A stretch of 42,662 bases of DNA, taken from the IMG/VR virus record IMGVR_UViG_3300046011_008537; one strand, 5' to 3'. The DNA is from a virus. Its lineage: Duplodnaviria > Heunggongvirae > Uroviricota > Caudoviricetes. This document shows positions 1 through 21,690 of this stretch, one piece after another (within the stretch, counting starts at the first letter, position 1; each line of letters starts with the position of its first letter). The notes under the pieces are model-generated. The model had not been told where the DNA came from. It was given only the letters and a program-made list of their open reading frames with translations, and made no database searches. The position numbers and the translations under genes were made by a program.

Positions 1-480
1 GAAGGACAAGATCCAGTTTTTCTTAGATTGAATTTCTTTGACCCCCCGTTCATGTATATGAATATATACACTTAGGTTTTAAAGAAAAACTGCAACTGGT
101 GCGGGTGTCAGCTACAAAAACTATTACAACTAGAAACTATCCTGTTAAAGATAGTCCGCCGATTATTTATGCTCTGATTGGCTGAAGAAGTGTTGTGGCT
201 AAAATCAACATAGGACGCATAAACAACAGACAAAGGGACCAACCCTAGACTAATGATAACGACACCGATTATCCAGTTGCCGAAAAGTATCCGAATAATA
301 CTTTTACTCTTATTAAGAGTGTCCGCCTCGTCTCAGGAACGGTAATAATCTAGTCGCATATAGATTTTACCTTTTCGGACCTACCGAAGATAAGGGTTTC
401 TTCGGTAAGGTGAGTTGCTATCTCACATTTTGCTAACTAATTGTAGGGTATGGCTGCGACGTTGAGTTCGGGATCAACTT
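1..480. ncRNA. Putative large structured non-coding RNA of unknown class; may extend beyond the left edge
   Basis: No ORF of 60 aa or more; visibly more G+C than the flanks. Perfect long-range stems 14-24/82-92 (CAGTTTTTCTT/AAGAAAAACTG), 92-99/273-280 (GCAACTGG/CCAGTTGC) and 104-109/261-266 (GGTGTC/GACACC). Many local hairpins, e.g. ACTATC/GATAGT, AAAAGTAT/ATACTTTT, ACTCTT/AAGAGT, ACCGAAGA/TCTTCGGT, GTGAG/CTCAC, GTTGA/TCAAC. Confidence 0.55.
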
Positions 481-485
481 GAAGT

Positions 486-514
486 AGTTTATTATATAAA
501 TTCTATTTAGTCAA
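486..514 (-). promoter_or_regulatory. Possible sigma70-type promoter (TTGACT-N17-TAAACT) firing into the structured region
   Basis: Minus-strand TTGACT at 514-509, 17-nt spacer, TAAACT at 491-486; predicted +1 near 479, just before the first hairpin. Confidence 0.35.
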
Positions 515-1153
515 GACTTTTTTCTTACACTTATCAAAATGATATCGTTGCATATTAGTTGCTCCTCCAGTTTTATAGCAATAAGGGCATGTAATTTTTA
601 GTTGTGGAATACCTTTTAATGAAGATGGTTTACTTTTCATAATAATGGATAATTTTATTTTAGTTTCTTCTAAACATGGTTTCCCTTTATTTGCATTTGA
701 CAATTTTATTCTATGTTCTTTTGTAGGCGATTTTCCTTTATTAGATGTAGATATCTTATCTCTATGCTCTTTAGAGTTTGTTTTGTTATATCTCGGGTGA
801 TTTTCTCGTGACATATTCATACCATAAAACCCATTTGGTTGGGCATATGATTTATTGATGAATAATGGGTTTTTAACAACATTAAATAATTTTTGAATTT
901 GCAATTCTTTATAGGTAGCCGATGGTCTAGTATCATGATATGAGATAATTTCAATAGAGAATAAATGTGGGTTGGTTTTTAACTCCAATTCCCATAAAGC
1001 TTTAAATTGTTTAGAACAAACTGAACCCTTATATCCACGTTTAATATTATCTATAGTAGATGATCCAATATAATTTTGAGGAAATTTGTCGCCTGCATAC
1101 GTGGTATGATAAACAACATATTTTTGGTCTGAATATATACTTGTGCTGGTCAT
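503..1153 (-). CDS. GIY-YIG homing endonuclease (Seg-like) with NUMOD3 repeats and a C-terminal Cys/His zinc-finger-like motif
   Basis: VVY...YIGS motif; repeats SKEHRDKISTSNKGK, TKEHRIKLSNANKGK and LEETKIKLS; CPYC...RYHFDKC tail; AGGAG RBS upstream of the ATG. Confidence 0.85.
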   Translation of the reverse strand: MTSTSIYSDQKYVVYHTTYAGDKFPQNYIGSSTIDNIKRGYKGSVCSKQFKALWELELKTNPHLFSIEIISYHDTRPSATYKELQIQKLFNVVKNPLFINKSYAQPNGFYGMNMSRENHPRYNKTNSKEHRDKISTSNKGKSPTKEHRIKLSNANKGKPCLEETKIKLSIIMKSKPSSLKGIPQLKITCPYCYKTGGATNMQRYHFDKCKKKVLTK

Positions 1154-1181
1154 AGGTTACTCCTAGAAAAGAATGATTAGT

Positions 1182-1227
1182 GCTAGTGGAGCCTCGGAAC
1201 TCGCGACTAGCTTTTAGTTTATTTATA
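1182..1227 (-). promoter_or_regulatory. T4 late promoter TATAAATA (1227-1220) plus a leader hairpin upstream of the endonuclease
   Basis: Exact TATAAATA on the minus strand, then GCTAGT-CGCG-AG-TTCCGAGG-CT-CC-ACTAGC (1211-1182); a homologous copy lies at 3513-3558. Confidence 0.75.
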
Positions 1228-1234
1228 AAAATGC

Positions 1235-1263
1235 TTGCTTTATTTTTATATATAACGTATAAT
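1235..1263 (+). promoter_or_regulatory. Sigma70-type early promoter
   Basis: TTGCTT (1235-1240), 17-nt spacer, TATAAT (1258-1263). Confidence 0.7.
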
Positions 1264-1287
1264 AATATTTTTTAATGGAGTTTGTTT

Positions 1288-1623
1288 ATGTTTATAGTTA
1301 AATCGAAAAATCAGTTTGGTGAGGAAATCTTAGTAAATCCAGAAAAAATTGCTTATGCAGTTCCTTCTTCTGGAGGTCAAGAAACAGTTATCTTTTTTGA
1401 TAATGATACTCATATCAGTGTATTAGAGTCATTTGTTGATTTTAAAAAAAGGTATGCTAAACCTACAGTTAAACTTTCTGTTGAGAAGGATGTCGTTTTT
1501 ACTGAAGAATTGGTTAATGCTGCTAATGCATATCCAGAACACTTACCTCGTCTACCAACAGGAAATGTCGATAAACGTACTAATCAATATAAAGAATGGA
1601 TTGCATCGAAAGAAGCTGCATAA
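1288..1623 (+). CDS. Hypothetical protein; N-terminus resembles FlbD-family small beta proteins
   Basis: ORF track 1282-1623; ATG at 1288 lies 7 nt after GGAG. GEEILVNPEKIAY...TVIFF...ISVLESF pattern. Confidence 0.6.
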   Translation: MFIVKSKNQFGEEILVNPEKIAYAVPSSGGQETVIFFDNDTHISVLESFVDFKKRYAKPTVKLSVEKDVVFTEELVNAANAYPEHLPRLPTGNVDKRTNQYKEWIASKEAA

Positions 1624-19653: not shown

Positions 19654-21690
19654 ATGGCTAGTGCCAATTCATCAGTTAATATTGCAGAATTAGATTTTGA
19701 TGCAATTAAAAATAATTTTAAAGATTATTTACGAGGTCAGGATAAATTTTTTGATTATGACTTCGAAAGTTCAGTTATATCTACAGTATTAGATTTATTA
19801 GCATATAATACACATTATAATGCATATTATCTAAACATGGTTGCCAACGAATCATTTTTAGATACAGCTGTAAAAAGAAGTTCTACAGTATCTCATGCAA
19901 AATTATTAAATTATACTCCTTCTTCTAGAAGAGCTGCAAAAGCATCGTTAAATATTAAATTTAATGGCGTACCTGCACCAGACGTAAATATCCCAAAATA
20001 TACAAAATTCTACTCTCAAGCAATAGATAATACTAATTACTCGTTCGTAACTTTAGATGCAATAACAACTACAACAAGTAATGGAGTTGCTCAATTTTAT
20101 AGTATTCCAGTATATCAAGGACAACTAGTAAAATATACATTTAATGTTAATATGATACAAAATTCGACGTCAACATTTACTATACCAGATACAGATGTTG
20201 ATACTACAACATTAACAGTTTTAGTTTATGATAATTCACAGTCAACTGTTTTTAATAAATTTGAATTAGCTTCTAATCATTTAACTTTAGATAATACTTC
20301 GCAAGTTTATTTTTTACAAGAAGCATTAAATGGTAATTTTGAAATATATTTTGGAGATGGCGTTTTAGGTAAATCATTAACAACTGGAAACGTTATTACT
20401 GTTGAATATTTGACTACTAAAGGCGAAGCTCCTAATGGTGCATATAAATTTATATTAATGGATAATGTTGCCGGCGAGTCAAATAAAATTGATGTTACAG
20501 AAGTTGCTTCTGGCGGACAAGAAAGGGAATCGATTCAATCTATTAAATTCTCAGCTCCAAAAGCATATGCTTCCCAAAATCGAGCTGTTACTAAATCAGA
20601 TTATCTTGAATTATTAAAAAGAGATAATCCAATTTTACCAATTCAATCAGTTAATGTTTGGGGAGGAGAAGATATGACTCCTAAACAATTCGGTAAAATG
20701 TTTATTTGTATTAAACCCAATGGCGGATATAGTTTATCTGCGTCCCAAAAATACAGATTACTTAATGAATATATTAAACCATTTAGCGTTATTACAATAA
20801 CTCCTGAAATTGTTGATGTCGATTATACGTTCCTAAAATTATCTTCTAACATTTATTTTGATAGAAATAGATCTATTTTTGATGCTGTTCAATTATCTAG
20901 CCTTTTAAAGTTGGCAATATTAGATTTTTGTAATACAACGTTAAATACATTCGATTCCGTATTTATCTTACCTAATCTAATAACTACAATAAAAAATATT
21001 GATGCATCTATTATAACTTGCGAATCAACTGTTTCTTTACAAAAAAGATTTTTACCTATTTTTAATACAATTAATACGCACGAATTTAAATTTGAATCTT
21101 CTATAGTTAAAGGTTCTCTAGATAGCGATTATTTTGATTATCTTGATACCAATGGAAATATTGTACAAAATGTAAAAATAGAAGAATCTCCTGCAGTATT
21201 TAATGTAATTGAATCCGCGCAAATAATTAGCGGTGGCTCAGGTTATACGTCAATTCCTTCTGTTACAATTTTTGGCGATGGAACGGGAGCTATTGCAACA
21301 GCAGAAGTTACTAATGGAACTATAACTGCGGTAACTGTAACAACCTCTGGATTAAATTATACACAAGCAGTTGCTGTTGTTAGCGGAGGAGGAGGTTCCG
21401 GCGCGTCTATTATTCCTATTTTGAGCGGAAATATAATTAAATTAAGAGCGTATTATTATATTAATAACGTAAAAACTGTTTTATTAGATGATGTTGGAAC
21501 TATAGTTTATTCTACTGGTGTAGTTTCTCTAACAAAATTTAATCCATATAATATAAATAATCTATTAGGACAATTCTCAATTACAGTTACACCGGAATCT
21601 ACGATAATATCTTCAACACAAGATAAGATAATAACGTTAGATATTATGGACAATACGTCAATAACTATTAATATAAAGCCTAAAGTTTAA
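19654..21690 (+). CDS. gp6: Baseplate wedge protein gp6
   Basis: ELDFD.IK, DYDFE.S...LLAYNTHY...ESFLDTA, YFGDG.LG, SQNRAVT..DY. Confidence 0.95.
   Translation: MASANSSVNIAELDFDAIKNNFKDYLRGQDKFFDYDFESSVISTVLDLLAYNTHYNAYYLNMVANESFLDTAVKRSSTVSHAKLLNYTPSSRRAAKASLNIKFNGVPAPDVNIPKYTKFYSQAIDNTNYSFVTLDAITTTTSNGVAQFYSIPVYQGQLVKYTFNVNMIQNSTSTFTIPDTDVDTTTLTVLVYDNSQSTVFNKFELASNHLTLDNTSQVYFLQEALNGNFEIYFGDGVLGKSLTTGNVITVEYLTTKGEAPNGAYKFILMDNVAGESNKIDVTEVASGGQERESIQSIKFSAPKAYASQNRAVTKSDYLELLKRDNPILPIQSVNVWGGEDMTPKQFGKMFICIKPNGGYSLSASQKYRLLNEYIKPFSVITITPEIVDVDYTFLKLSSNIYFDRNRSIFDAVQLSSLLKLAILDFCNTTLNTFDSVFILPNLITTIKNIDASIITCESTVSLQKRFLPIFNTINTHEFKFESSIVKGSLDSDYFDYLDTNGNIVQNVKIEESPAVFNVIESAQIISGGSGYTSIPSVTIFGDGTGAIATAEVTNGTITAVTVTTSGLNYTQAVAVVSGGGGSGASIIPILSGNIIKLRAYYYINNVKTVLLDDVGTIVYSTGVVSLTKFNPYNINNLLGQFSITVTPESTIISSTQDKIITLDIMDNTSITINIKPKV

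Follow-up and report, generated by a model that had tools for sequence, protein, structure and literature searches.

The window analysed here, meaning the whole 42,662-nt stretch of DNA from a member of the Caudoviricetes (IMG/VR record IMGVR_UViG_3300046011_008537), begins with about half a kilobase that raises the question of whether a gene can be present where no protein is encoded, and, if so, which strand is transcribed and what the product might do. The longest open reading frame in positions 1-480 is at most 44 amino acids, in agreement with the initial annotation, which had seen no ORF there, and none of the homologous copies described below contains a coding ORF. The GC content of the element (38-40%) exceeds that of the surrounding 6 kb (26-33%). 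The nested pairings that had first suggested a structured RNA, namely 14-24/82-92 (11 bp), 92-99/273-280 (GCAACTGG/CCAGTTGC) and 104-109/261-266 (GGTGTC/GACACC), are all present, as are the hairpin ATCTA-GTCGCA..TAGAT at 348-365 and the TGCGAC at 455-460, and positions 1-500 fold better than dinucleotide shuffles (z -2.8 on the plus strand and -3.3 on the minus strand), a comparison by which that annotation had proposed to judge itself.

Extent, conservation and distribution of the element

IMG/VR was scanned twice by pattern and once by neighbour protein, each time with the same 12 contigs as the outcome, and proteins homologous to the neighbour (P0001-P0031, 48-99% identity) led to additional contigs from ENA, Logan and JGI, giving 28 distinct sequences after deduplication (the window and 27 others). 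Across these 27 others, window positions 7 to ~479 are kept at 78-100% identity, the nearest virus record (G001) being 93% identical over 7-526. Whereas the identity of the neighbour protein drops to 48-62% in the divergent copies, that of the RNA stays at 78% or above (82% and 78% in copies whose protein is 58% and 48% identical, respectively). Synteny is constant: the element occupies a gap of ~800 nt between a DUF6433 gene on the minus strand and a gene of 102-118 amino acids on the plus strand.

The initial annotation placed the element at 1-480, and although the structured non-coding stretch is real, position 1 is not its boundary, since the window cuts through its interior. Homology to the relatives begins at position 7, the first six bases differing from every homologue, and in the homologues the conserved non-coding stretch extends ~100 nt to the left of position 1. 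These additional ~100 nt carry a GAA-loop hairpin (GATTCC-GAAG-GGAATC in the minus reading) and a 12-bp hairpin (GAGCGAAGCGAA...TTCGCTTCGCTC), and the left end of the element coincides with a second minus-strand early promoter, TTGACG-N17-TACAAT, that serves the 142-aa DUF6433 gene. The contig end itself (GAAGGA, positions 1-6) resembles a flipped loop of the GATTCC-GAAG-GGAATC hairpin and is probably an assembly-end artefact. Judging by the aligned copies, the whole element is most likely a structured non-coding RNA gene of ~570-600 nt.

The samples behind every source, viromes and metagenomes alike, came from lakes or other freshwater, and the element-bearing contigs encode T4 gp59, PhoH and T4-type RNase H; the carrier is, as far as these contigs tell, one lineage of uncultured freshwater T4-like phages. 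In a search of INPHARED GenBank phages by blastn in distant mode nothing matched the RNA, and the homing endonuclease next to it alone found matches, in coliphage genes. A JGI metagenome scan gave three contigs in all, the G001 record among them. When prokaryote genomes were scanned for a 20-nt pattern from the core, a single match appeared, within coding DNA of a rumen Prevotella MAG, which we regard as a chance match because nhmmer gave no further similarity. The covariance model of the 5' domain matched once in a 126-kb contig and once in the window, that is, a single copy per contig searched, and nhmmer together with this model detected no distant homologues and no second copy among 80 DUF6433 loci and the 126-kb contig. 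Four lake RNA runs of two studies yielded metatranscriptome contigs that contain parts of the element at depth 2-8, similar to the flanking genes, and that carry no strand, end or level information, stretches left uncovered being uninformative; one of these contigs spans from the RNA to the plus-strand genes across the endonuclease-free form of the locus.

A comparison of the whole window, on both strands, with the 4227 models of Rfam 15, which include GOLLD, ROOL, HEARO, OLE, raiA, RNase P, tmRNA, 6S and the group I and II introns, yielded nothing at gathering threshold. With E-values up to 10, window 1-1400 and the full-length copy in L011 (3150-4000) produced chance-level scores of 13-21 bits, far under the thresholds. 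The Rfam comparison that the initial annotation had recommended thus matched no known family, group I introns included, and ARAGORN likewise agreed with its failure to see tRNA or tmRNA signatures, finding neither in the window or in four homologous loci. By these comparisons, the element is an unnamed class within Rfam 15.

Promoters and exchange of cargo at the DUF6433 locus

The sigma-70-type early promoter TTGACT-N17-TAAACT, which had been read on the minus strand upstream of the first hairpin, was located in the window (Table 1). Its hexamers, TTGAC(T/G) and TA(A/C/T)ACT, are invariant at a fixed spacing of 17 nt in 28/28 sequences and are preceded by an A-tract, while the spacer and the first bases of the transcript are free to vary. 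From this invariance we place the transcription start at ~479, just before hairpin H1. The -35 element of a plus-strand promoter, TTGACT-N17-TATAAT, forms with that of the RNA promoter an inverted repeat between the two units, which are therefore predicted to be driven by a divergent early promoter pair.

Table 1. Features of the RNA element and its surroundings, in window coordinates
Feature	Position	Strand	Remarks
RNA body, part inside the window	1..479	minus	inferred 5' end ~479; 3' end ~100 nt past position 1 in homologues
Sigma-70-type early promoter TTGACT-N17-TAAACT	486..514	minus	exact match in window; same site in L011
H1, first 5' hairpin (GUUGA...UCAAC)	461..478	minus	two double-change pairs, G-C to A-U
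Pseudoknot 5' strand (GUCGCA on RNA)	455..460	minus	3 covarying pairs
H3, hairpin GUGAG-AUAGCAA-CUCAC	410..426	minus	two double-change pairs in 8 sequences
H4, hairpin with invariant loop GAAACCCUU	381..408	minus	four double-change pairs; internal loop tolerated
H5 (376-380/321-325), enclosing H6 and H7	321..380	minus	2 double-change pairs
H6 (361-371/341-352)	inside H5	minus	6 double-change pairs
Pseudoknot 3' strand (UGCGAC), in H6 loop	353..358	minus	covarying, complementary forms
H7 (335-337/326-328)	inside H5	minus	invariant
H8 (317-320/306-309)	306..320	minus	3 double-change pairs
H9 (298-305/283-290), loop UUCGAA or UUCGGA	283..305	minus	2 double-change pairs
Highly conserved core, ~230 nt	52..280	minus	167/243 columns invariant
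H14, hairpin	135-156	minus	double change present
H16, hairpin	52-71	minus	double changes present
Free-standing homing endonuclease gene, 216 aa	503..1153	minus	neighbour, not part of the RNA; PHROG 314 and 10820

The homing endonuclease gene is inserted between the two divergent early promoters and is missing from G001, L009-L012, L014 and L019. Because G001 joins the equivalent of 7-526 directly to that of 1232-1300, we consider the gene an optional insertion. At positions 503-520, the -35 hexamer TTGACT of the RNA promoter makes the last codons and the stop of the endonuclease (...K V L T K, stop), so that the insertion keeps the RNA promoter exactly. Differing endonuclease genes have been gained or lost on either side of the locus in L033, L037 and L044.

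For comparison of loci, IMG/VR was also searched with an alignment of DUF6433 proteins. Analysis by nhmmer and the 5'-domain covariance model revealed the RNA only at loci whose DUF6433 is at least 87% identical; where DUF6433 is 52-70% identical, the site is occupied by small ORFs (L075, L076), by iteron-like repeats or by another non-coding insert, and more distant phages have the T4 RNase H gene there, next to DUF6433. Since relatives carry other cargo at the same position, the RNA appears to be an accessory gene, and the exchange argues against an indispensable role in cis.

Several features of these alternative loci deserve description in their own right. The non-coding insert, found in L070 (1880-2275, plus strand) and also in L071, L073 and L074, whose DUF6433 is ~68% identical, is a different stretch of ~400 nt at the same site, with the same kind of divergent early promoter, similar CGAAG-loop and GCGAAGC end hairpins and a folding z of -2.9, and is possibly a second RNA gene in the same slot. 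In L072 (1800-2470) the site contains about eight CATGAATA-like copies among C(GAA)G-loop hairpins (GCTGCGAAGCAGC, ACCGCGAAGCGGT), an arrangement that looks like iterons or repeated binding sites. In most T4-like relatives (L078-L135; e.g., L082:1643-2917), DUF6433 comes immediately after the gene for the T4-type RNase H / 5'-3' exonuclease, 1-40 nt separating the two. DUF6433 (PF20025) weakly resembles the N-terminal domain of ATP-dependent DNA ligase, and its position beside the RNase H gene might point to a common function in DNA replication or repair. We rejected the idea that the RNA substitutes for a lost RNase H gene, or is a decayed rnh, given an intact rnh ~9 kb away in the 126-kb contig, and likewise a specific link with the downstream Sm-like gene WYL_2, given that WYL_2 also occurs in 11 loci that lack the RNA. 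Between the second promoter and the DUF6433 start lie a C(UUCG)G hairpin (CCCUUCGGG) and a 12-codon ORF, MESVIDSNSNFK, that may encode a leader peptide (L011:3192-3260, minus strand; L001:2160-2237).

This organization recalls the PeSL promoter/stem-loop cassettes of T4-type phage hyperplastic regions, which are short regulatory motifs flanking ORFs (PMC2839356, PMC4122927). As with PeSLs, each bound of the RNA gene has a near-consensus early promoter and an adjacent stem-loop, the 12-bp stem-loop standing directly upstream of the second promoter, and the cargo is swapped among relatives; unlike PeSL cargo, which consists of ORFs, the segment between the cassettes is here a 570-nt structured RNA. 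Within the window, which holds mostly late genes, the cassette elements recur at two TTGACK-N17-TANANT and three GCGAAGC sites, numbers close to those in shuffles. The site thus seems to behave like a T4-type hyperplastic region bounded by PeSLs, with the RNA as lineage-specific cargo.

The same organization bears on the possibility that the RNA acts in cis, forming the 5' portion of a long early message that continues into the DUF6433...WYL_2 operon and tunes its stability, processing or translation. RNA and operon share a strand, the RNA invariably being the immediate upstream neighbour; with no intrinsic terminator predicted in the interval, read-through as a long leader is possible, and the metatranscriptome contigs exhibit no sharp boundary. 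Against this, every copy has the second strong early promoter between RNA and operon, relatives possess the same operon without this RNA, and a length of ~570 nt with a pseudoknot far exceeds known leaders. A leader function is therefore unlikely, and we favour a stand-alone RNA gene.

Covariation, a pseudoknot and the functional strand

A fold shared by the homologues should leave compensatory changes, one of the checks that the initial annotation had named. RNAalifold on alignment A3 (27 sequences in minus orientation) predicted 133 consensus pairs, 27 of which show compensatory double changes, and by our own count 99.1% of the cells in consensus pairs are canonical. Slid controls, in which the partners were moved by 1-3 columns, retained 0-3 double changes and 38-46% canonical cells, and 0/300 column shuffles reached the observed covariation score. 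The full-length homologue likewise folds better than dinucleotide shuffles (z -4.4 on minus, -4.6 on plus). At least two covarying pairs fall in each of H1, H3, H4, H5, H6, H8, H9, H16 and the GAA-loop hairpin outside the window, and one each in H14 and the terminal hairpin outside the window. In the core, GCAACUGG(A) at 272-280 is predicted to pair over a long range with either UCUAGUUGU (126-134) or CCAGUUGC (92-99), the partner originally proposed; the sole change seen in this pairing is tolerated by both candidates, and the long-range helices of the core stay predictions because the region is nearly invariant.

The candidate pseudoknot between 353-358 and 455-460 passed the same comparison, in that each observed variant form stays complementary. 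The two strands occur as GUCACA/UGUGAC, GUCGCA/UGCGAC, GCCACG/CGUGGC, GUCACG/CGUGAC and UACGCG/CGCGU, with 100% canonical pairs in the 27 sequences. Together with the T4-type genes on the contigs, the non-coding nature of every copy and the lack of an Rfam match, these compensatory changes bear out the original proposal of a phage-encoded large ncRNA.

Next, we considered which strand is functional, a matter left unsettled by the initial annotation. The consensus fold is 18 kcal/mol better on the minus strand (-115.1 kcal/mol and 133 pairs, versus -96.9 kcal/mol and 115 pairs on the plus strand), and mid-helix G-U pairs are seen only on minus in H6 (A3 columns 141-160, six sequences) and H14 (A3 columns 361-378, four sequences), positions that become A-C mismatches if read on plus. 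One-sided changes in robust helices number 9 on minus versus 5 on plus by hand and 7 versus 6 by script, and are not decisive.

The alternative, that the plus strand is the functional RNA, draws on several signs of the opposite kind. Its single-sequence fold is equally good (z -4.6); in 14 sequences a mid-helix pair (A3 columns 103-122) reads U-G on plus and C-A on minus; the GGTGTC/GACACC helix has variants that retain wobble pairs only on plus; the hairpin beyond the window reads GATTCC-TTCG-GGAATC on plus, a very stable C(UUCG)G tetraloop; and a possible H1-H9 loop-loop pairing, as judged by eye, fits all sequences on plus only. The CCGATT/GATTGG stem, which had been cited for its G-U pairs on plus, is no evidence for that strand, since two mismatches break it in the divergent L047 and L051 (by eye). 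In addition, no conserved plus-strand promoter was found to the left of the element, the single candidate -10 being deleted in L017 and L018, and the leftward region is transcribed in the opposite direction. On promoter conservation above all, the functional strand is probably minus, and a plus-strand RNA is quite unlikely.

Proposed role of the RNA and its relation to known systems

We return to the minus-strand, stand-alone reading and put a probability of roughly 0.6 on the following form of it: the element is an accessory gene for a large structured ncRNA that, during the early phase of infection, would work in trans in the form of a folded particle. Host RNA polymerase would start at ~479 from the sigma-70-type early promoter at 486-514 and would first produce a 5' domain (283-478) of nine helices, in which one hairpin loop pairs with the segment right after the first hairpin, forming the pseudoknot. 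The very conserved core (52-280) with its predicted long-range helices would follow, and the 3' tail outside the window would place the GAA-loop and 12-bp hairpins against the next early promoter, in the PeSL-like arrangement. Action in trans might be exerted by the RNA alone, with a protein, or as a self-assembly of the kind proposed for GOLLD and ROOL. Searching the rest of the window for sequences that the RNA might target by antisense pairing gave 10-13-nt chance matches only. More tentatively, this unnamed class of large ornate RNA, made early by lytic freshwater T4-like phages, might be an RNA machine in its own right, whether by assembling itself into a particle, by serving as a decoy for a host defence or nuclease, or by catalysis, with the core as the active part.

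The closest parallels in kind are GOLLD (RF01998) and ROOL (RF03087), which are also phage-encoded non-coding RNAs of more than 500 nt with many helices, pseudoknots and highly conserved stretches; GOLLD was, moreover, first seen in lake metagenomes, and the present RNA likewise comes from lakes. Neither Rfam model matches it, however, and whereas tRNA genes are frequently adjacent to GOLLD and ROOL, ARAGORN found none beside the present RNA, which derives from a lytic T4-like phage, stands behind an early promoter and so far belongs to one narrow lineage. GOLLD and ROOL are reported to form homo-oligomeric cages, as visualized by cryo-EM (bioRxiv 10.1101/2024.12.08.627333). By analogy, it may be grouped in kind with these large ornate phage RNAs, without homology to them.

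A role in DNA replication offers another reading, in which the promoter-driven structured transcript forms an R-loop and primes DNA synthesis at an origin. ColE1 RNA II (~550 nt) and the early-promoter transcript of T4 oriE prime DNA synthesis, and the element shares with them a sigma-70 promoter, an untranslated structured RNA of ~550 nt, a conserved run of five to seven G and a position near a skew minimum. In the 126-kb contig (G002), the cumulative GC-skew minimum and a minus-to-plus switch of gene orientation lie at 16-21 kb (L141, L142), within ~4 kb of the RNA locus (20,555-21,119). The length and promoter type fit such a primer, as do the roughly eight iteron-like repeats at the same site in a related phage and the RNase H gene that adjoins the site in distant relatives. 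These points are circumstantial, however, and close relatives do without the element; GC skew is confounded with transcription direction here, and we identified no antisense regulator, DnaA-type boxes or AT-rich unwinding element. The likeness to ColE1 RNA II and T4 oriE, in a locus that shows no analogue of the antisense RNA I, is a resemblance only, and a primer function is very unlikely.

Least probable of all, at odds that we consider slight, is a ribozyme or degenerate self-splicing, group I-like intron, perhaps tied to the homing endonuclease that adjoins the RNA in some copies: the T4 introns td, nrdB and nrdD also combine a T4-like phage, a structured RNA of several hundred nucleotides and a nearby endonuclease gene, and the plus-strand motifs AGACTAATG and AATCTAGTC resemble the R and S elements of group I introns (Tetrahymena intron), but, unlike those introns, the element has no exons, no split ORF, no Intron_gpI (RF00028) or group II match at E up to 10 on either strand and no conserved P7, its flanks being promoters of divergent or tandem units and its endonuclease lying beyond the promoter, outside the RNA, and missing from many copies. 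L017, L041 and L047 have lost the pairing of the putative P7 (GACUA/UAGUC), whose 3' half belongs to a covariation-backed hairpin; on L017-type sequences we rejected the group I reading of the R- and S-like motifs.

The stand-alone minus-strand RNA gene would join a small company. Bacterial and phage RNAs of more than 500 nt with conserved ornate folds are few (OLE, GOLLD, ROOL, HEARO, raiA), and each has opened new biology. The immediate reach of the present example is limited by its narrow distribution and uncultured host; its defined promoter, covariation-backed pseudoknot, ~28 natural variants and clean genomic frame make it suited to in vitro transcription, chemical probing and cryo-EM. 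For T4-type phages, the locus suggests that hyperplastic regions can hold RNA genes, besides ORFs, as accessory cargo.
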